Part shown: one piece after another, positions 1 through 7,396 of the stretch
How the letters are laid out: each line of letters starts with the position of its first letter
Position numbering within the stretch: position 1 is the first letter of the stretch
DNA from: a virus
Taxonomy: Duplodnaviria > Heunggongvirae > Uroviricota > Caudoviricetes
Length of the DNA stretch: 7,396 bases
Reading direction: 5' to 3' (one strand)
Virus record (IMG/VR): IMGVR_UViG_3300029310_000108
Coordinates: 1 to 7,396 of that record
Notes under the pieces: generated by a model
The model's database searches: none
What the model saw: the letters and a program-made list of their open reading frames with translations, nothing else
What the model was told of the DNA's origin: nothing
Program-made: the position numbers and the translations under genes

Positions 1-1446
1 GATAAATTAAGAGCTTTCGCAAATGAGAGAGCGAGAATTGTTCTTGGAGAACAGATAAGAGAAAAGTCAAAAGGTCGCAATCATGATTTATCGGTTATGG
101 AGTATAAGGTGTTAAAAGAGGAAATTCGTTACGACGAATTGAAGGAACAGGCTGATGAAAAGCAACAGGAGAATGAGCAGTTGGAGCGTGAAAAGAAACA
201 GCTTGTGCATGAGTATGATACTTTATACATGCGAGTAGCGGTTAAACAGCTGGATTATGAGGAAGCTGATGAACGAGTAAAAGAGGCAAATGGGCGAAAT
301 GCCGTGCGGCGATTGCAGAACAGGCCAAAGAAGAAGTTAAGGAAGTGGCAGATGGCGACTAAGAGCAATATTTATAAAGATCCGCGCTGGCTGTCGCTGG
401 TGGAGAAATATAAAGACAATTGGGTACTGGCAGCAAAAGAATTGTTTGATATTGATTTAAGCCACCAGCAACAACAAATTGTTGAAGCTATACAGCCCAA
501 TAATGCAAAAGCTACTGTCACCACTCCGTATGGGATCGGACGACCGCAAGTGCTTGCTGTTATTAGTACCCTTTATACGATTATGTATCCTGATTCCCGG
601 ACAGTAATTGTTTATCCAAAATCAAATGTTTGCAAAAGAGGAATTGTTGCATATGTGTGGCAATGTTGGGAGGCATTGCTGAAAAAACAACCTTTTATCA
701 TTGAGTATTTTAAGGTCGGTGATAGCGGTCTGATGTTCAATGAATTTTGGGGAATGTGCTTTTGTAACTACCGCCTTAACTATGAAGATAGCATTGCAGG
801 TCACTACGCCGACCATCTTTTATTCATTATTGTGGATTCCGCACATATCAGCGATCGGGCATACAGCATTGTGTGGGCAAGCATGACTAGTGGTGATTCA
901 CGCATATTGCTCACTTCAATTCCGTCACCAGAGGAAATAGGCTTTTTTTATGATTCACATCATGGACGTGCTTTAGCTGAAGATAATCCGAGTGGTGTAT
1001 ATAAAGCCATTAAGCTGAGTGCGGAGGATTCACCATTTATTACCCAAGAATATCTTGATCATTTTGCCGAAAGGTATGGCGGGCGAAATAGTGATGACTA
1101 TCGTCGTATGATTCTTGGTGAGTTCCCTGGTATTAGGGAGGCTGTTCTTGAATCAGATATGCCGAAGACAATGCGCTTTTCGATGCCTGATGGTAGTGAA
1201 TGGACAATGCCATTACGAGTGATAGCCCGGCATCATGCGCAGCACCACGCCAAAAAACATGGCGTCACGACATTAGAATGGTTGAAATCGCACACTATTC
1301 CACTCTTCACTGCAGATCACAATGCTATCGTTGAGTGGGCAAAAACAATTCCGTGGGAGCATGTCGCTGAATATGCTCACATGCTAAAACCGCCGAAAGA
1401 CAGGCACGAAATTAGCTGGCTGACAGCCGAAAAAATCATTGAATGA
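1..1446 (+). CDS. 5'-partial ORF: N-terminal coiled-coil segment followed by an ASCE-type ATPase-like core with terminase-large-subunit-like motif order; no nuclease domain; product uncertain
   Basis: Frame 1 is open from base 1: there is no stop before the first ATG at 97 and no Shine-Dalgarno in front of that ATG, so the gene probably starts upstream of the window. Stop TGA at 1444-1446. Motifs read from the translation: Q-rich LSHQQQQIVEAI, Walker-B-like LLFIIVDSAH, motif-III-like ILLTSIPSP, then RRMILGEFPG. The expected Walker A position (TTPYGIGRPQV) lacks GK[ST]. Family assignment is from remembered motif patterns only. Confidence 0.55.
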   Translation, partial: DKLRAFANERARIVLGEQIREKSKGRNHDLSVMEYKVLKEEIRYDELKEQADEKQQENEQLEREKKQLVHEYDTLYMRVAVKQLDYEEADERVKEANGRNAVRRLQNRPKKKLRKWQMATKSNIYKDPRWLSLVEKYKDNWVLAAKELFDIDLSHQQQQIVEAIQPNNAKATVTTPYGIGRPQVLAVISTLYTIMYPDSRTVIVYPKSNVCKRGIVAYVWQCWEALLKKQPFIIEYFKVGDSGLMFNEFWGMCFCNYRLNYEDSIAGHYADHLLFIIVDSAHISDRAYSIVWASMTSGDSRILLTSIPSPEEIGFFYDSHHGRALAEDNPSGVYKAIKLSAEDSPFITQEYLDHFAERYGGRNSDDYRRMILGEFPGIREAVLESDMPKTMRFSMPDGSEWTMPLRVIARHHAQHHAKKHGVTTLEWLKSHTIPLFTADHNAIVEWAKTIPWEHVAEYAHMLKPPKDRHEISWLTAEKIIE

Positions 1447-1453
1447 TATCAAC

Positions 1454-1486
1454 AAAAAGCCCGCCAGGTCTGGCGGGCTTCTTTAT
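1454..1486. terminator. Bidirectional rho-independent terminator between convergent genes
   Basis: GC-rich inverted repeat GCCCGCCAG / CTGGCGGGC (about 1459-1478) flanked by AAAAA on the left and CTTCTTTAT on the right. On the minus strand it reads as stem-loop followed by TTTTTGTTG. It sits between the stop of the plus ORF (1446) and the stop of the minus-strand humD-like gene (1492). Confidence 0.65.
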
Positions 1487-1491
1487 GCGCC

Positions 1492-1881
1492 TTAAATCAC
1501 AGGTCTATAATCAAACTCCCCACTTCGGGCATCATTAATGACATGAGTGATCACACCAAACACAGCATTACTGCCCGTGCATCCATCGTCATCTACTGGT
1601 AACGCCTCTTTCTTCCCGGTGCTTAAATCCTCCAGGTGCTGGCGCGGATACTTCCTGTATCTCTTTATGCGATATTCACCCTCCATAGCGCATATAAGCA
1701 GTGAACCATCAACCGGAGTAAGTGAGGAATCAACCACCAGCAAAGCACCTTGCAATATTCCCTCACGGTGATGGCTGTCTGCCGCCCGCATGAAGTAGGT
1801 CGCGGAAGGATGTCTGATTAGTTGCTGATCAAGAGAAATGCGGCTCTCTGCATAATCCGCCGCAGGAGAAGGGAAGCCCAT
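1492..1881 (-). CDS. humD: UmuD'-like S24 (LexA/UmuD family) protein, HumD-like; begins at the residue equivalent to the post-cleavage N-terminus of UmuD'
   Basis: 129-aa ORF with ATG at 1881 and GAGG 9 nt upstream. The translation [30 protein letters not shown]... closely follows E. coli UmuD from its Cys24/Gly25 cleavage site ([29 protein letters not shown]). The Ser (ADSHH) and Lys (EYRIKRYRK) at the UmuD active-site positions are present, and the C-terminal VFGVITHVI matches UmuD VFGVVIHVV. Recalled from memory, not searched. Confidence 0.85.
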   Translation of the reverse strand: [129 protein letters not shown]

Positions 1882-1899
1882 AGCGTTTTACCTCAATGA

Positions 1900-1919
1900 T
1901 ACTGTTTATTCATACAGTA
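1900..1919. promoter_or_regulatory. LexA (SOS) box, CTGT-N8-ACAG
   Basis: Plus strand tACTGTttattcatACAGta: CTGT at 1902-1905, 8-bp AT-rich spacer, ACAG at 1914-1917. This matches the E. coli LexA consensus TACTGT(AT)4ACAGTA. It lies 19-38 bp upstream of the humD-like start codon and overlaps the putative -10. Confidence 0.8.
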
Positions 1920-1945
1920 TACATTGAAAAGGCATAGTTTGTGAA
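1916..1945 (-). promoter_or_regulatory. Putative sigma70 promoter of the humD-like gene (-35 TTCACA, 18-bp spacer, -10 TATACT), with the -10 overlapped by the LexA box
   Basis: On the minus strand: TTCACA (plus 1940-1945), 18 bp, TATACT (plus 1916-1921). The -10 hexamer shares bases with the first half-site of the LexA box. Predicted by eye only. Confidence 0.45.
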
Positions 1946-2004
1946 AGCGGGGTTTGTAGGCGCGCCACGCTGGGGGCTAATCACATTTCTCCCCCATCTT
2001 GCCG

Positions 2005-2256
2005 TTATTTTTTTGGTGCATCCTCGTTCTGATACACCGGATCGCTCCCTTTTGGCAACTGGAGGCTTAACTTCCGGTAGTGCCGTAGCCGTTCCATGAA
2101 ATAGGCGCGCAGGTTTTCCGGTTGCTCACGGGCCACCTGCTCTGCAATCACAGGTATATTCAGCCGTTCTTTGTAAGCAACGCCGCTGGCGGCAAGGTCT
2201 ACGTTCACCTTGTCTCGCTCTTCCTGGCTTTTAGCTGCTATATTTCGATCTGACAC
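2005..2256 (-). CDS. hot: Homologue of DNA polymerase III theta subunit (HolE-like; phage P1 Hot-like)
   Basis: 83-aa ORF with a GTG start at 2256 preceded by AGGAGG and a 6-nt spacer. The translation ...[47 protein letters not shown]... matches E. coli theta (...[46 protein letters not shown]...) nearly residue for residue in the core. Recalled from memory. Confidence 0.85.
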
Positions 2257-2288
2257 AAGAAACCTCCTAGAGTTAGTGGATCAGGCAC

Positions 2289-2645
2289 ATGCACAATAAC
2301 GTTCTCAATGTTAGCCGTTCAATTCAGACAATCAGAGACTGCACCAGTGTGGTGGCATCAATCCCATTGCGAAATAGCATAGACGAACTGCAAATTCGTG
2401 TATTGAACCTGAATCATGCCAATGCAATTAAGCAATTGCGCTTTATTTTGACGCTTAAAAGTGAAGCAGAGGGGGTAAAGCACAGCGTAAAAGTGTTTTC
2501 TGAGGCCATCCTGCTTAATGGGAGGCTTCGGCATCTGGTGAGGCCAGAACGTCAATATCATGACGTCCTGGCTTGTGAAAAAGACCTTCTTTCTGAAGTT
2601 CAGGATAGGGTGATCGATTTCGTTAAATCTCATCCCCTGCATTGA
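2289..2645 (+). CDS. Possible antisense-oriented hypothetical protein (118 aa) in the gap between two minus-strand genes; coding status uncertain
   Basis: Only protein-like ORF in the roughly 370-bp space between the minus-strand genes at 2630-2914 and 2005-2256. The translation has helix-like periodicity and no low-complexity runs, whereas the overlapping minus-strand ORF 2358-2642 looks like a shadow ORF. Against it: weak ribosome-binding site (CAGGCAC before ATG), several AGG/AGA/ATA codons, only 32 bp to the divergent hot start, and a 16-bp convergent overlap with the neighbouring gene. Confidence 0.3.
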   Translation: MHNNVLNVSRSIQTIRDCTSVVASIPLRNSIDELQIRVLNLNHANAIKQLRFILTLKSEAEGVKHSVKVFSEAILLNGRLRHLVRPERQYHDVLACEKDLLSEVQDRVIDFVKSHPLH

Positions 2646-2914
2646 GGGCAGGTGTTACCTTCCGCAAAGTAGGGAAAGCTGCTATCAAGTTCATCGCACC
2701 ATCTGCGATGGTCGTAGCACCAAAAAGTCTCCCACGACAAACAAAAAGACTTCATCCACCGGGACACTCGGTCGGGTATATCTGCTGGTGGTCGCTCCTC
2801 TGGCAATAATTTACCTGATAATTCCCTTTCCGCCCGCGCCAGCATTCCTTTGAGGCTGGCATTCTCTTTTTCAAGAATCTCTACGCGCGCCTGTAACTCA
2901 GCTTTCGTTGGCAT
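2630..2914 (-). CDS. Hypothetical small protein (94 aa): N-terminal coiled-coil-like segment and a Cys/Trp-rich C-terminal tail ending in CPQC
   Basis: Minus-strand ORF; start chosen at ATG 2912-2914 (MPTKAELQARVEILEKEN...) because GAGG lies 6 nt upstream. Upstream in-frame ATGs at 2926 and 2986 lack a Shine-Dalgarno. Overlaps the stop of the upstream gene (2898) by 17 nt. Five Cys in the tail (C-x7-C-x6-C-x15-C-x2-C). Confidence 0.45.
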   Translation of the reverse strand: MPTKAELQARVEILEKENASLKGMLARAERELSGKLLPEERPPADIPDRVSRWMKSFCLSWETFWCYDHRRWCDELDSSFPYFAEGNTCPQCRG

Positions 2915-3662
2915 GGTCCGCCTCATGTTTATCAGCCACCAGCGGCAATAAAGCCTTCGCCATTTCATGAACCAACATGGCATCAATGACGCCTAGCGTA
3001 TGGCCCGGCTTAATCTTTAATGCGGCCTCAAGATAGCCTCTTTCCAGAGTGGTTTTTACGCTTTTCCTGGGCGCTTGTTGGGAACTATCCGGAAAATCCG
3101 GATGGTTGCCAGCCTCATAAGCTACCCGCAACCAGTGCATGAATGTTTCCGCAGACACACAACCGCAGTCCACATCGATTTTCCCGCGCTGCTGCTCCAG
3201 CCATTGCTCAAAATCTAACTTGTAAGCCTTACTTTCAAGTTCATCACCATTGAACTCGACTTGCTGCGACGCTATGAGAGCGGCTTCGTATTGTTCGTGA
3301 GTGACAACTGACTGGTATTCATCGCTATCAAGGTCATGAATTGGAAGCTCAATCTCAAAACAAAAATTGCGCCCATCGAACTGGTCTTTTTTGCAGTCTG
3401 AGCCAAAAGCAAAAGTCGCGCATGGCACCATTAAATTGGCACTGAGCAGGCGACAATCGATCATACCATAAGGCCATCCGCCGCGCTTAGGCAACTCCTT
3501 CACTAACAAGTCGATCAGCTTCATTGTTTTACCATCTTTGCAAGTCGCCAAAGCCATTTGGGCAAGCTCCAATACCTCATCTGCCGTGTATCCAGCGCCG
3601 TGTCCATACATTTCGATGCGTGCAATAATCTCTGATATGCGAAATTTAGTGATTTTAGTCAT
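2898..3662 (-). CDS. Hypothetical protein (254 aa; 260 aa if the in-frame ATG at 3680 is used), Cys-containing, no family recognised
   Basis: Longest ORF in the array. ATG 3660-3662 overlaps the TGA stop of the upstream small gene as ATGA (MTKITKFRISEII...). An alternative in-frame ATG at 3678-3680 has AAGG 6 nt upstream. Stop TGA at 2898-2900. Seven Cys including VDCGC. Confidence 0.7.
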   Translation of the reverse strand: MTKITKFRISEIIARIEMYGHGAGYTADEVLELAQMALATCKDGKTMKLIDLLVKELPKRGGWPYGMIDCRLLSANLMVPCATFAFGSDCKKDQFDGRNFCFEIELPIHDLDSDEYQSVVTHEQYEAALIASQQVEFNGDELESKAYKLDFEQWLEQQRGKIDVDCGCVSAETFMHWLRVAYEAGNHPDFPDSSQQAPRKSVKTTLERGYLEAALKIKPGHTLGVIDAMLVHEMAKALLPLVADKHEADHANES

Positions 3663-3868
3663 AGTTTTATTTCCTTGCATGGTTCGCCTTTACGGCATAC
3701 GGCTACACGGTCATTTCTTACATTAACCACTGTCACCGTTCCGTCATCACATTGAATAACGATGAAAGGGTGTTCATTCTCTTTTGTGCAATGTTGCTGT
3801 TCTCCAGCCATTGCAGCCGGAGGATCAAATAGCGCCAGAACAAATGCCAACCTTAAAAAATGCTTCAT
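3659..3868 (-). CDS. Small secreted protein (69 aa) with predicted Sec signal peptide and four Cys in the roughly 47-aa mature part
   Basis: ATG at 3866-3868 with AAGG 4 nt upstream. N-terminus MKHFLRLAFVLALFDPPAAMA has a basic n-region, a hydrophobic core and an AxA-type cleavage site. Mature region GEQQHCTKENEHPFIVIQCDDGTVTVVNVRNDRVAVCRKGEPCKEIKL. Stop overlaps the next gene's start (ATGA). Confidence 0.6.
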   Translation of the reverse strand: MKHFLRLAFVLALFDPPAAMAGEQQHCTKENEHPFIVIQCDDGTVTVVNVRNDRVAVCRKGEPCKEIKL

Positions 3869-3875
3869 TTGGCCT

Positions 3876-3928
3876 TATCCGTTATCAAAATTGGAATATC
3901 CGTTATCACGAGCGTGATATCCGTTATG
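3876..3928. repeat. Three direct repeats of (A/T)TATCCGTTAT(C/G) at 21-bp phasing, with a 6-2-6 inverted repeat between copies 2 and 3; putative operator or iteron-like protein-binding array
   Basis: TATCCGTTATC at 3876-3886 and 3897-3907, TATCCGTTATG at 3918-3928. Inverted repeat ATCACG-AG-CGTGAT at 3905-3918. The array begins 8 bp upstream of the start codon of the gene at 3659-3868. Confidence 0.65.
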
Positions 3929-4081
3929 AAGTGGGGAATAAGACCACTTACCAATACCCTCCGCCTGACTCAAAGTTGGCGATAAGCCAGGCTGCGAAAA
4001 GAGTAACCCCTGCTCCAAAAACTCGACCGCATCAAAATCAAATACGGCTTAGCGGAATAGCACCAGCAGACCCACGCACTG

Positions 4082-4091
4082 NNNNNNNNNN
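4082..4091. other. Assembly gap (run of 10 N)
   Basis: Literal nnnnnnnnnn in the sequence; true length and content unknown. It lies in a roughly 320-bp non-coding interval between two minus-strand genes. Confidence 0.97.
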
Positions 4092-4192
4092 ACACCCCAC
4101 CGTACCCCATTTAACACCACCAGCTAATAAAATAAATAAACCGCAAAGGCATACAAACAAAAAAGTAATCCAAAATTTCTTTCTGTTTTTCA

Positions 4193-4486
4193 TTATGGTT
4201 GACTCCAGTTATCTTCAATAACAATACTTAACCTCTGAAGCCATTCTGCTAATTTCAGCATGGCTTCTCTTTCGCTTAAACCACGCGGAAAATCATCAAG
4301 CGAAATTGTTGGCTTGAAGTTCCCCGAATTATCCATTTCAACGGTCAGATTTTGCTCCAGCACGGTATTCCTTACGCGGCTATTGTGCCGAAGCAAATAT
4401 ACTGAGCGTGATTTATTGGTTTTGTGGTCGAGCTGATATTCGGTAAGTATCATCTGGCTTCCACCATGATTATTACCGCGCCACAT
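4193..4486 (-). CDS. Hypothetical protein (97 aa), no family recognised
   Basis: ATG at 4484-4486 preceded by GGAG and a 5-nt spacer; stop TAA at 4193-4195. Follows the upstream gene's stop by 12 nt. Translation MWRGNNHGGSQMILTEYQLDHK... Confidence 0.55.
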   Translation of the reverse strand: MWRGNNHGGSQMILTEYQLDHKTNKSRSVYLLRHNSRVRNTVLEQNLTVEMDNSGNFKPTISLDDFPRGLSEREAMLKLAEWLQRLSIVIEDNWSQP

Positions 4487-4498
4487 AATTACTCCGTG

Positions 4499-4927
4499 TT
4501 AATAAGAGAAATAGACCGTTGCAACACTGTTATATTGGTCGAACGAAATAGCATTTACTTCATAGCTGGTGGGCAGCTTCTTACCAAGAATGTAGCCAGG
4601 CCATGAGTTCCACGGAATTTCTGTTCGGTCGTCGTCTTGCCACATTACGCAACCAAGAGAGCCAACCATTTCACCATATCGCTTGCCACAAGTAACAAAG
4701 CCTATATTCGGTTTTGATTGTGTGACTGATACCGTGGTGGTGTTTGCGGAAGCATTGGTTGCAGCACGCCGCGCTTGCTCGCTGGCGATAGAAGCATTTA
4801 CTGCCGCCGTGGTCGCCGCTGTTGCCGCCGCTGTTGCCGCCGCTCCAGCGGCAATAACTGACGCGTGGGATAAATGACTGGCTGATAACATAGCCAGAAA
4901 AATAATAGCTCTTTGAAATTTAGCCAT
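4499..4927 (-). CDS. Secreted protein (142 aa): signal peptide, Ala/Thr-rich low-complexity linker, and a roughly 70-aa C-terminal domain with two Cys
   Basis: ATG at 4925-4927 with AAGGTG upstream. N-terminus MAKFQRAIIFLAMLSASHLSHA is signal-peptide-like. The linker AAGAAATAAATAATTAA is encoded by a GCN-rich 12-bp tandem repeat. C-terminal domain ...GFVTCGKRYGEMVGSLGCVMWQDDD... Confidence 0.7.
   Translation of the reverse strand: MAKFQRAIIFLAMLSASHLSHASVIAAGAAATAAATAATTAAVNASIASEQARRAATNASANTTTVSVTQSKPNIGFVTCGKRYGEMVGSLGCVMWQDDDRTEIPWNSWPGYILGKKLPTSYEVNAISFDQYNSVATVYFSY
4803..4845. repeat. About 3.5 tandem copies of a 12-bp unit (GCCGCTGTTGCC) inside the secreted-protein gene
   Basis: Plus strand gccgccgtggtc (4803-4814), gccgctgttgcc (4815-4826), gccgctgttgcc (4827-4838), gccgctc (4839-4845). 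It encodes the Ala/Thr-rich linker on the minus strand. Confidence 0.85.
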
Positions 4928-5201
4928 TGATATTCACCTTTATCGCGTACACCTTTACCGGTTTATCACCGAAGTGCGGATGTGTGATTGTCTTGATTTC
5001 ATATCCGTTATACGGGACGTCTATTCTGCGACTGGAATCGTCGCGCTTCGGATATCCCTTTGTGATAATCAGGCGGTCATATTCCCGGAACATGATTCGC
5101 TTATTCCAGTAGCCATTACACAAGCGATACTCTTCCGTTTTCTCTCCGCGAATCATGGCATCGAAGTATTCACCTTTGACGGCAAGTTGCAGGTTAGCCA
5201 C
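4920..5201 (-). CDS. ASCH-domain-like (PUA-like fold, DUF3850-type) small protein
   Basis: 93-aa ORF with a GTG start at 5199-5201 preceded by AGGAGG and a 6-nt spacer. Translation MANLQLAVKGEYFDAMIRGEKTEEYRLCNGYWNKRIMFREYDRLIITKGY... follows the remembered ASCH/DUF3850 pattern (..L.V.PEYF.A...G.KT.E.R.ND..F..GD.L.L.E..). Start overlaps the upstream stop and the stop overlaps the next start, both as TGGCTAA. Confidence 0.7.
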   Translation of the reverse strand: MANLQLAVKGEYFDAMIRGEKTEEYRLCNGYWNKRIMFREYDRLIITKGYPKRDDSSRRIDVPYNGYEIKTITHPHFGDKPVKVYAIKVNING

Positions 5202-5742
5202 GGTTAACCTCCTGCGGCGGCTCTGGTAGTGGCATCCAGTACAAGGCGTTCCCTAACCACGATAAAGTGCCGTCGCTCAACTCCACGTATTCCCCTTGTA
5301 CCTGTCCTGCCATATACTCGCCGTGCTTTGAATAAATTAAAATCCAATCATCTTGAGGGGGCATTCGCTCACTACAGCTTATCCAACCATCCGGAGTTAC
5401 CGGATAGTTGCCATTCACAAGGTCAGCTCGAACATATAGCGTGTCATCATGGTGCTGATTGTGGCTGCACCACGTTAATTCGCTTAACTCGCCATCTTCT
5501 GGCCATACTCCAGCCGTTTGCAGCCAGATATGGGCTGGCGCATCTTGGCAAGGTGTATTAACTGGCAACTTGTAAGTTTGGCTTACAGGTTCTGCACTAT
5601 CAGCTTCGCGCCGCTTCTGTAGCTCTGCTGCCATCGCTCTCACGACTTCAACTGGTGCCCTTGCAGCAAACTCTATGTTGGTGATCAGCTCATTAAGATA
5701 TTGCTCGCTGGGATACTGTTTCTTATTGGTAATAGTGGTCAT
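5194..5742 (-). CDS. Phage-type protein with DUF551-like C-terminal domain (182 aa)
   Basis: ATG at 5740-5742 preceded by AAAGGAGAGTGAT, coupled to the upstream stop as TGAtATG. The C-terminal region WISCSERMPPQDDWILIY...YWMPLPEPP matches the remembered DUF551 hallmark (W...HWMPLP.PP) seen in lambdoid prophage proteins. Confidence 0.75.
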   Translation of the reverse strand: MTTITNKKQYPSEQYLNELITNIEFAARAPVEVVRAMAAELQKRREADSAEPVSQTYKLPVNTPCQDAPAHIWLQTAGVWPEDGELSELTWCSHNQHHDDTLYVRADLVNGNYPVTPDGWISCSERMPPQDDWILIYSKHGEYMAGQVQGEYVELSDGTLSWLGNALYWMPLPEPPQEVNRG

Positions 5743-5743
5743 A

Positions 5744-6166
5744 TCACTCTCCTTTCCCCTTAAGCATGGCAGCACGGCAGGCATTCCAGCCTCTCACCTC
5801 TGCAATAGCGGCAACAGCATCAACCGCGTACATGCTAAGAGGGTTAGGCATTGGTTTTTCTTCCGGCACTACAGGCACTGGCGGTGCGGTATAAAACTTC
5901 GTCCCCAGCGGCAACAACTTCATCGCTTTTTCTCCCTTAATGATGCGATAAGTTGATTTCTCACCAAGATATACCGTTCCATCCATAACAAGGCCATGTC
6001 GCTGCTCTGAAACTTCACCAATAGCCTCTGCTTCCAGCGATGCCAGCGCGATACGAAACACATTGGCAAGCAGGCTGTCTGAAGATTGGTTATCGTGCGC
6101 CGGGTCGCTCAGGAAGCCTGTGATGAATGATTTAATCTCCGCACGTTCTTTGGTAATAGTGGTCAT
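5744..6166 (-). CDS. Hypothetical protein (140 aa) sharing its first five or six codons (MTTIT) with the downstream DUF551-like gene
   Basis: ATG at 6164-6166 with AAGGA 7 nt upstream; stop TGA at 5744-5746, 1 nt before the next ATG. The first 17 nt of coding sequence are identical to the next gene. Confidence 0.65.
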   Translation of the reverse strand: MTTITKERAEIKSFITGFLSDPAHDNQSSDSLLANVFRIALASLEAEAIGEVSEQRHGLVMDGTVYLGEKSTYRIIKGEKAMKLLPLGTKFYTAPPVPVVPEEKPMPNPLSMYAVDAVAAIAEVRGWNACRAAMLKGKGE

Positions 6167-6176
6167 GTGTTAGTCC

Positions 6177-6932
6177 TTAAACTGCCAGTTGCAATTGCAT
6201 TTCAAAGCGGTCGCGTTGTTCACAATACGCAAGAGAACCAGGGCTATTGTGTGCCTCAATCCGTTCTACCATTAATGCTGCGCGTGTCTCTTTACTTGCA
6301 GGTGCATAAGCCCCAGACCAGGCTTTATCAATACCGATGTTTCGAGCGACGTTCGTACTATCTGCGCTGGCTAAGGGTAATTTTGTGAATATCAGCGGAT
6401 TTAACATGCGCAACCCATGTAGTTTCGTAACCGGCTGACCATACTCATCAACAATGTGACGAATCAGGTCTTTCATTCTGGCTACCGCAAGAGTTGGGCG
6501 CTTTACGTCATAGTCGCCACAACTACCGATAGCCACTCGCGGAAACTCATTGCACAAATGAATAAATCGCTCGTCACTTTCATTCATGTGCCACACTGGA
6601 ACGCCAGCTAGTTTTCCGTGAGGCCACTCATTCAGAAGCGCATCATTTTCCTCCTCTCCGCCATCAATAACATCCGGGATAATGGCAAAATCGAATCCTG
6701 GGTGATTCTTCCAGCGAGCAACAAACTCGTAGTAATCGCTCCAGTCGATTTTGTTTTTGCCAGCTGCTTTCCAGGCGGTGAATGCACCGTTGTCCAGCGC
6801 GAACGACTGACAGTATTCAGCCGCGAGATTGATCTGGCCTGAATGCGCAAAACTGATAAACGCATGTCGCCCTTTCCATGCTCTCATTGCGCACGTATCA
6901 GGAGTAATAGGCCCACCGTGGTAGTGAATCAT
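6177..6932 (-). CDS. tRNA-guanine-transglycosylase-fold protein, minimal TIM-barrel core (DpdA-like candidate DNA 7-deazaguanine transglycosylase)
   Basis: 251-aa ORF; ATG at 6930-6932 preceded by AAGGAG and a 6-nt spacer, coupled to the upstream stop (TGAgATG). Motif correspondences with E. coli Tgt: SFAHSG ~ GNTFHL; ALDNGAFTAW ~ LTDSGGFQVF; RVAIGSCGD ~ YAVGGLAVGE; ASADSTNVARNIG ~ DMFDCVMPTRNARNG. It lacks the C-terminal CxCxxC...H zinc subdomain and the N-terminal roughly 50 aa of tRNA-TGTs. Recalled from memory, not searched. Confidence 0.7.
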   Translation of the reverse strand: MIHYHGGPITPDTCAMRAWKGRHAFISFAHSGQINLAAEYCQSFALDNGAFTAWKAAGKNKIDWSDYYEFVARWKNHPGFDFAIIPDVIDGGEEENDALLNEWPHGKLAGVPVWHMNESDERFIHLCNEFPRVAIGSCGDYDVKRPTLAVARMKDLIRHIVDEYGQPVTKLHGLRMLNPLIFTKLPLASADSTNVARNIGIDKAWSGAYAPASKETRAALMVERIEAHNSPGSLAYCEQRDRFEMQLQLAV

Positions 6933-6933
6933 C

Positions 6934-7396
6934 TCACTCTCCTTTGATGCGAATGCCAGCGGCGCGTGGCACATTAACTTCCACGATGCGCACTGTTGGT
7001 TTGTACATCTCAATCGCTGTCAGCCAGTCAGCTCCTGTCATGCGCTTTTCCGCATCGCCATTAGTCCACTGAACCGGTACACCAATAGCCTTCATCGCGA
7101 TTTCTATTTCCCCGGCAATGGCGCTTTTTCCGCAACCAGTAAAACCAGATACAACGACCAGAACTTCACCTTTGGCTGGTTTTATTCCCCGCGCTTCCAG
7201 TTCTGCTATGCGCTTACTTCCATCCGAGATAACACCTTCGTAATACTCACGCTGCTCGTTGAGTTTTGATTTTGCTGTTTCAAGCTCAACACGCAGTTTC
7301 CCTACTGTTAGCGCAATATCCTCGTTCTCCTGGTCGCGGCGTTTGATGTATTGCTGGTTTCTTTCCCGTTCATCCAGCAGTTCCAGCACAATCGAT
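6934..7396 (-). CDS. 5'-partial ORF (start beyond the right window edge): coiled-coil region followed by a Walker A motif (GFTGCGKS) close to the C-terminus; function unknown
   Basis: Reading frame is open to the window edge: the codons at 7390-7395 are in frame with no stop, and the GTG at 7387-7389 is only the first in-frame start inside the window. Stop TGA at 6934-6936. Translation ...RVELETAKSKLNEQREYYEG...GEVLVVVSGFTGCGKSAIAGEIEIAMK... Only about 50 aa follow the P-loop. Confidence 0.65.
   Translation of the reverse strand, partial: SIVLELLDERERNQQYIKRRDQENEDIALTVGKLRVELETAKSKLNEQREYYEGVISDGSKRIAELEARGIKPAKGEVLVVVSGFTGCGKSAIAGEIEIAMKAIGVPVQWTNGDAEKRMTGADWLTAIEMYKPTVRIVEVNVPRAAGIRIKGE

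Follow-up and report, generated by a model that had tools for sequence, protein, structure and literature searches.

We analysed a stretch of viral DNA of 7,396 nucleotides (positions 1 to 7,396 of the Caudoviricetes record IMGVR_UViG_3300029310_000108; the whole stretch is called the window below) with a focus on the open reading frame (ORF) at its left edge, which holds a 364-codon gene for what appears to be a catalytically dead paralogue of PacB, the terminase large subunit (TerL) of P1-type phage-plasmids. From base 292 to base 7396 the window matches D6/P1-like phage-plasmids of E. coli and Salmonella in a patchy, mosaic manner. Frame 1 is open from base 1 to a stop at 1444–1446, which bears out an earlier note, made from the letters alone, that had reported 481 codons open from the left edge. 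The ORF is real but composite, consisting of three unrelated pieces, and its first 351 bases, about a quarter of its length, are an artefact that is not part of the terminase-like protein. The parts of the ORF are as follows, with residues numbered from the start of the 364-residue protein:

1–291, plus strand: internal fragment of a MobV/Mob_Pre relaxase gene, from the charged, coiled-coil-like region downstream of the relaxase domain; 53 protein relatives
292–362, plus strand: truncated 3′ end of an isaA-like gene, whose true frame is frame 3, ending ...AKCRAAIAEQAKEEVKEVADGD at the stop codon TAA (360–362); 100% identity to plasmid pTB423 from base 292
339–345, plus strand: Shine-Dalgarno sequence AAGGAAG, 6 nt upstream of the ATG at 352, read directly in the sequence
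352–1446, plus strand: gene of 364 codons for a putative dead paralogue of PacB (terminase large subunit), to which a C-terminal module has been added; phrog_5902, E = 2.7e-164
352–1128, plus strand: TerL-type ATPase-fold domain, predicted to be non-catalytic, residues 1–259
463–474, plus strand: retained Q motif H38-Q39-Q40-Q41 (SHQQQQ); Q40 is invariant and Q39 nearly so in active and dead relatives
523–546, plus strand: degenerate P-loop T58-P-Y-G-I-G-R64-P65, aligned to S-G-H-G-T-G-K-S/T of active relatives; Lys to Arg, Ser/Thr to Pro
817–840, plus strand: degenerate Walker B strand L156-L-F-I-I-V161-D162-S163, aligned to LLxIVDEA; Asp to Val, catalytic Glu to Asp
907–927, plus strand: motif III remnant L186-L-T-S189-I-P191-S; Ser and Pro kept, Gln190 and Thr192 replaced
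1129–1443, plus strand: C-terminal module of about 105 residues (260–364), unrelated to the PacB nuclease domain; phrog_17928 positions 399–491, E = 2.6e-14

The start at ATG 352 agrees with the RefSeq coding sequence in pTB423 and with protein cluster P0001 (392 member sequences; WP_032342034), a hypothetical protein of D6-like E. coli phage-plasmids to which the 364-residue protein is 99% identical. Among the PHROGs profiles, PacB itself matched the same phrog_5902 (E = 3.3e-150); the match of the 364-residue protein to phrog_2, 'terminase large subunit', was weak (E = 1.9e-8; PacB: 2e-40). BLASTP aligned residues 7–259 with residues 10–264 of the 502-residue PacB of pTB423 (37% identity, E = 6e-62), and the identity to PacB of P1, P7, RCS47 and SJ46 was 33–35%. 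When a profile of the six closest sequences was run against 1.84 billion representatives, it recovered 1,634 proteins (403 of them below 1e-10), most of which were 450–570 residues long and were matched over their N-terminal 260 residues. Pfam gave nothing but sub-threshold noise on the ORF and NCBIfam only a sub-threshold PBSX terminase match (E = 0.05), the PADLOC profiles did not match the ORF, and a PDB sequence search with the six-sequence profile returned no match. Judged from its sequence, the protein is derived from PacB and a paralogue of it, the two sharing homology across the whole ATPase domain, phrog_5902, the fold and the kind of genome in which they occur. Database entries label the gene 'hypothetical protein' or, misleadingly, 'terminase large subunit', and in a full-text literature search no account of either a PacB paralogue or a pseudoenzyme derived from a terminase came up.

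Alignment with active relatives confirmed that the motifs picked out in the earlier note are real and stand in terminase order. In the wider alignments, TTPYGIGRPQ was placed on SGHGTGKS, at the very position where the note had expected a P-loop, HLLFIIVD on HLLIIVDE, FIIVDSAH on hhIVDEASG, LLTSIPS on LLSQPT, and LGEFP on VLGQFP at the end of the ATPase domain. The 'hhhhDS' Walker B of the note was right as to the strand and wrong as to the register: D162 occupies the position of the catalytic Glu, and the Walker B Asp position is Val161. The Arg194 position just past motif III (codon 931–933) is also replaced. In comparison to PacB, the protein is without the Walker A Lys and Ser/Thr, the Walker B Asp, the catalytic Glu and the Gln, Thr and Arg of motif III; from these residues we judge that the protein is CATALYTICALLY dead, with every residue for productive Mg-ATP binding and hydrolysis replaced.

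In a census of 157 relatives, 102 long proteins had all four catalytic residues and 10 further long proteins were 'partial', mostly with an EE variant; relatives lacking both the Lys and the Asp were almost all shorter than 380 residues. Positions conserved only in the active relatives were S58, G59, H60, T62, K64, Q93, K100, H152, D161, E162, S164, G165, Q190, T192 and R194, and the fold-core positions common to active and dead relatives were Q39/Q40, G61/G63, W133, E146, G150, S189, P191, G197, F199, Y200, S227, P228, G256 and F258. The Walker A Lys position, which is K in 100% of the active relatives, is R, Q, H, M, C, T, I or E in the dead clade, a variation indicating that nucleotide binding is not conserved there. 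Similarly, the Walker B Asp position (D in 94% of active relatives) is V, T, A, M, P, L or I in the dead clade, and the Walker B pair, V161-D162 in the window, reads TE, AE, MD, VN, TD, PN, LH, PQ, PD or IN across the clade, the Glu being present in 100% of active relatives.

Comparison of an AlphaFold2 (AF2) model with TerL structures recovered the TerL ATPase fold in the 364-residue protein; this model was built from a 26-sequence alignment, and a model from six sequences was poor beyond approximately residue 140. Sequence identity to the TerL ATPase structures (P74-26 TerL, T4 gp17, HK97, D6E and Sf6 gp2) was only 9–17%; the motifs there are canonical, and the proteins are active motors that at full length include a nuclease domain as well. 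In the 364-residue protein the homology to PacB ends at residue 259; the nuclease domain of PacB, of about 240 residues, is missing, and the protein has the unrelated 105-residue C-terminal module. Searching the whole window in all frames by tblastn with the PacB nuclease domain (residues 263–502) gave a best E of 0.74, and the next gene, humD, begins only 46 nt past the stop, which together exclude a nuclease domain displaced into another frame by a frameshift. The absence of a nuclease domain reported in the earlier note is thus upheld, and neither the canonical Walker A upstream nor the nuclease in another frame that it had envisaged occurs.

We then considered selection on the gene. By the Nei-Gojobori method, the ratio of nonsynonymous to synonymous divergence (dN/dS) of the N-domain was 0.27 against a 66%-identical relative on L008 and 0.16 against the copy in P1-like MH422554, values that are approximate because the synonymous divergence (dS) of the N-domain is near saturation; for the C-terminal module the ratio was 0.06. 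A neighbour-joining tree placed 12 short dead proteins (the window protein, P0004, P0006, P0007, the MH422554 copy, P0061, P0063, P0064, P0065, P0067, P0106 and P0112) in one clade near the PacB-type terminases, in 195 of 200 bootstraps. The members of this clade have diverged to 26–40% identity and conserve W24, A27, A28, L36 and R251 specifically, and conservation of the N-terminal helices is 44% within the clade vs 28% among active terminases. The 364-residue protein, whose inactivity is judged from its residues, thus appears to be a pseudoenzyme maintained under purifying selection. In this it resembles viral pseudoenzymes, being an enzyme homologue without catalytic residues that is conserved under selection; viral pseudoenzymes are enzyme-dead paralogues that work by binding. 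A second pair of ATPase-domain-only proteins with degenerate Walker motifs, P0095 and P0145 (about 267 residues), was seen on a different branch of the TerL tree, and since this pair is independent, loss of the nuclease domain and of catalysis happened more than once.

The C-terminal module has a distribution of its own. It lies at the C-terminal end of phrog_17928 (511 positions), it is a stand-alone 98-residue gene in Cronobacter phage JK004 (gene_35; L006 4001–4297), two genes downstream of a DnaB-like helicase gene, it is also matched in Xanthomonas phage SAC, and it is missing from the members of the dead clade that are about 260 residues long. Between relatives with N-domains only 54–57% identical, the module is approximately 97% identical, and its dS is 0.19 vs 1.46 for the N-domain, which points to recent exchange of the module. 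Its predicted local distance difference test (pLDDT) score in the AF2 model was below 50; a PDB sequence search among solved structures found nothing significant, and a word-indexed protein search returned two fragments only.

On D6-like plasmids the gene order is pacA – pacB – c1 – cre-like – ... – dut – DUF2829/Tad2-like – isaA-like – dead paralogue – (doc – phd) – humD, such that the dead paralogue has the isaA-like gene upstream and humD or doc–phd downstream; it occupies an accessory slot and, unlike PacB, is not encoded beside pacA. On pTB423, pacB lies about 5.4 kb upstream of it, and pacA–pacB is about 5–6 kb away in pTB423 and L008. Four elements that carry the dead paralogue (pTB423, L008, MH422554 and L015) also have a gene for a C1 repressor and either pacA/pacB or two genes of matching size. 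In phage D6 the slot holds pdcA–doc–phd and the dead paralogue is absent. Three P1-like phages have the isaA-like gene and the dead paralogue as a pair between ssb and hxr, where classical P1 has isaA–IS1–isaB; the ssb–hxr region is the known variable region RD-2 (PMC6906374), and in P1 isaA is non-essential and pacA and pacB are essential (PMC10695390). We considered whether isaB of P1 is an IS1-truncated remnant of the dead paralogue and rejected it, as neither IsaB nor IsaA of P1 is similar.

The stop of the isaA-like gene overlaps the start of the dead paralogue by 11, 8 or 14 nt. The isaA-like protein matched only phrog_2326, where the function is listed as unknown. Every context of the dead clade long enough to judge (P0061, known only from a 1.2-kb contig, was left out) was an accessory region of a P1/D6-like phage-plasmid in which an intact pacB, or a pair of genes of pacA/pacB size, was present too. 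Distant members of the clade were found in P1-like or plasmid-like accessory regions behind different genes: P0063, a 263-residue dead paralogue (L010 7336–8792), has a 4-nt overlap with the end of a gene for a Ref-like RecA-dependent nuclease (PF16786, phrog_2321), and others lie behind a radical-SAM gene or about 3 kb from a pacA/pacB-sized pair. At the P0063 locus a nuclease gene is thereby coupled to a nuclease-less terminase ATPase fold; among genome contigs, no confirmed locus related to P0063 was found. That the isaA-like partner is itself a Ref-like or other nuclease, making up in trans for the missing domain, was rejected: it has no Pfam match, and it is not similar to the Ref-like protein that is coupled to P0063. 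On D6-like plasmids a DUF2829 / PF11195 'Tad2-like' gene follows dut, two genes before the dead paralogue (L008 6500–7201, L001 7620–8297), and the stretch from cre to humD may be an anti-defence or accessory island.

The coiled-coil N-terminus that the earlier note had ascribed to the protein does not belong to it, given that bases 1–291 are a Mob_Pre fragment, bases 292–351 an out-of-frame isaA-like tail and ATG 352 the true start. The translation of bases 1–291 matched 53 small metagenomic proteins at 80–95% identity (E down to 6e-48), the likeness being to the region downstream of PF01076 in Mob proteins of gut metagenomes. PF01076 (Mob_Pre) is carried by some of these relatives, such as P0027 (E = 2.5e-12), which overlaps the window fragment, and another relative, P0033, directly follows a PF01076 gene fragment; the window fragment itself has no Pfam match to PF01076, being internal, with the catalytic relaxase domain beyond the left edge. 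Bases 1–275 share 99.3% DNA identity with Firmicutes-type chromosomal islands (locus GC 0.33–0.39), which adjoin rplM–rpsI, truA and cbiQ, and L003, with a Mob gene that is more distantly related, aligns with bases 5–297 at 89% identity. No relative of bases 1–291 was found in E. coli genomes, plasmids or phages, and a DNA pattern from within the Mob fragment had no match among viral contigs. Look-ups of the 449- and 481-residue readings of the ORF as exact products gave no match either. Bases 1–291 are thus foreign to the phage-plasmid, are the source of the apparent coiled-coil N-terminus and have no relationship to the terminase-like protein. The same Mob_Pre segment was seen in dozens of short database proteins, each diverging into unrelated sequence at a different point (P0008 switches after ...ADER, P0019 carries PF00472, P0048 carries PF03309, and P0056 is also an example), which suggests that the segment is a recombination-prone end of a mobile element or a frequent seed of chimeric contigs.

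Relatives of the Mob fragment run on '...DYEEADERVKEAN-ERADRI...' exactly where the window turns D6-like. From base 292 on, and only from there, the region of the dead paralogue is 100% identical to plasmids of about 90 kb such as pTB423, with matches in 72 E. coli genomes, every one of them on a plasmid, and in 88 PLSDB plasmids. Both flanking genes are cut mid-gene at 291/292, where the two parents overlap by about 5–6 nt of microhomology (G.GCGA), and a 41-mer across the junction occurred in no contig collection, whether viral, metagenome or genome. Read in frame 1, bases 292–351 form a 20-codon out-of-frame linker, GRNAVRRLQNRPKKKLRKWQ, that is meaningless as protein. A run of 10 N at 4082–4091 indicates that the window is a scaffold with a gap; such a gap is consistent with metagenomic or short-read assembly and makes a chimeric junction at 291/292 less surprising. 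We conclude that 291/292 is most likely a chimeric assembly, since a chimeric contig is the most economical account of a scaffold in which DNA near-identical to that of two unrelated host groups meets at a point inside a gene on either side.

A related over-extension was found in the databases. P0002 (438 residues, 'MAG TPA: Terminase large subunit') is the same gene with a spurious 74-residue N-terminal extension, which we rejected as real because it contains the out-of-frame linker GRNAVRRLQSRPKKKLRKWQ and is a gene-caller over-extension. Phage D6 shares the isaA-like tail only to approximately window base 335 (L002 3738–3781 vs window 292–335) and then continues into pdcA–doc–phd; with D6 diverging at this point, the isaA-like 3′ end is a recurrent recombination boundary in these elements.

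The remainder of the window holds accessory genes usual for these elements, including DUF551, ASCH and ead/Ea22-type genes, together with the following:

1492–1881, minus strand: humD (Peptidase_S24), convergent with the 1–1446 ORF
2005–2256, minus strand: hot (DNA polymerase III theta)
4499–4927, minus strand: 142-residue ORF without a Pfam match; its N-terminus (MAKFQRAIIFLAMLSASHLSHA) resembles a signal peptide and precedes a low-complexity stretch rich in Ala and Thr

The window has no small terminase, portal or pac context, and the GC content of the dead-paralogue gene (0.43) is below that of the rest of the window (0.48) and of pacB (0.48), both in agreement with the earlier note, which had placed the ORF outside any structural-gene context and called it more A+T-rich than its surroundings.

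Overall, we find it probable that the locus is best explained by a PacB-derived pseudoenzyme that is kept under selection and acts by binding, the first 351 bases of the ORF not being part of the protein. Of the two possibilities raised in the earlier note, a divergent packaging ATPase and a terminase-derived protein repurposed for something else, it is the second that the PacB homology, TerL fold, replaced catalytic sites, missing nuclease, accessory slot and purifying selection favour. Because it would be unable to power packaging or to cut DNA, the 364-residue protein most likely works by binding. In the mechanism that we propose, the clade-specific N-terminal helices and the retained surfaces of the ATPase domain would engage a P1-type packaging partner (PacA, PacB or the portal), and the translationally coupled IsaA-like protein could be an alternative or additional partner. 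As an outcome, terminase assembly or pac cleavage would be modulated or blocked, either in the element itself or in a competing P1-like phage, and the effect might take the form of modulation or of dominant-negative poisoning of pacase or motor assembly.

Several points weigh against this interpretation. Residual nucleotide binding through Arg64 and Asp162 is conceivable in this subgroup, and the dN/dS values of the N-domain are, as given above, approximate. The C-terminal module could be the real activity, with the dead ATPase domain a mere scaffold. The coupled upstream gene varies over the clade (isaA-like, Ref-like nuclease, radical-SAM), which weakens the case for a dedicated IsaA-like partner. 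In addition, a very recent illegitimate recombination is a less probable alternative to an artefact at 291/292.

Four other explanations were weighed. One is that the protein is an anti-defence decoy, an inert TerL-shaped protein that binds Avs1-3-type STAND NTPase sensors without activating them, or masks the real terminase. Avs1-3 are reported to bind the TerL fold (PMC13581612). With the nuclease domain, half of the TerL surface is lost here, there is no match to PADLOC or other defence-related profiles, the Tad2-like neighbour is a Pfam family assignment only, and a decoy that binds the sensor risks triggering it. We regard this explanation as unlikely, and a decoy role against Avs immunity as more speculative than the binding of a packaging partner.

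It is improbable that the full 481-codon reading is real, a recent recombination having fused the Mob coiled-coil segment to the PacB-like protein to give a new fusion. Frame 1 is open across the junction and the 5–6 nt of microhomology would fit illegitimate recombination in vivo, but the junction is unique, being absent from the 72 E. coli plasmids, the 88 PLSDB plasmids and the three contig collections, and its left side matches Firmicutes-type islands at 99.3% identity and its right side E. coli phage-plasmids at 100%, the hosts being unrelated. The mid-gene truncation of both flanking genes, the linker that is another gene read out of frame and the 10-N gap in the scaffold also argue against a fusion, and with its native Shine-Dalgarno sequence and ATG intact, the 364-residue protein would be made anyway.

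We consider it quite improbable that the gene has no role of its own and is the decaying leftover of a pacB copy, whether duplicated or captured. Loss of the catalytic residues and nuclease domain, a place in a variable accessory slot that is without the gene in D6, P1 and P7, and the existence of truncated versions (P0007, 266 residues; P0003, 263 residues) would all be expected of decay. On the other hand, dN/dS lies well under 1, 392 + 122 + 100 clustered sequences have the ORF intact, a clade of 12 at 26–40% identity keeps the fold core and has invariant positions of its own, the AF2 model is confident, and the start is translationally coupled to the upstream gene with a good Shine-Dalgarno sequence, which together argue for a maintained protein.

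Finally, a divergent but working packaging ATPase, the other possibility of the earlier note, acting as a second motor subunit that hydrolyses ATP via Arg64 (for Lys) and Asp162 (for Glu), is very improbable: the TerL fold is intact, the Q motif and the P-loop glycines are kept and this subgroup does have Arg and Asp at those two positions, but the clade shows free variation at the Lys position and has V, T, A, M, P, L or I where the Walker B Asp would be, and in the window protein Pro stands in for the Ser/Thr. The motif III Gln, Thr and Arg and other active-only positions are lost, the nuclease domain is missing, and neither a small terminase gene nor a portal gene adjoins the dead paralogue. 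The long contigs on which it lies also have an intact pacB or a gene of PacB size, and pacB is essential in P1 (PMC10695390).

The PacB-derived pseudoenzyme acting by binding allows a further and more tentative proposal, that its clade is a dedicated one of inert terminase mimics serving as decoys or dominant-negatives, which might poison the motor or pacase of rival P1-like phages (exclusion) or shield the terminase from Avs-type sensors. If that is true, it would be the first case in which a pseudoenzyme derived from a terminase serves in regulation or counter-defence.

A practical lesson is that long ORFs at contig edges need comparison with relatives, as the extra N-terminal domain here was most likely a chimeric junction followed by out-of-frame read-through. 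Large terminases are treated as single-copy, essential and catalytically active hallmark genes, and are used as phylogenetic and annotation markers; the proteins described here would be a conserved side lineage of the large terminase that has kept the fold and none of the chemistry. P1-type phage-plasmids commonly bring resistance genes into E. coli and Salmonella, and should this lineage target the packaging machinery, or immunity that senses terminases, it would add a new layer of regulation or conflict in these elements.

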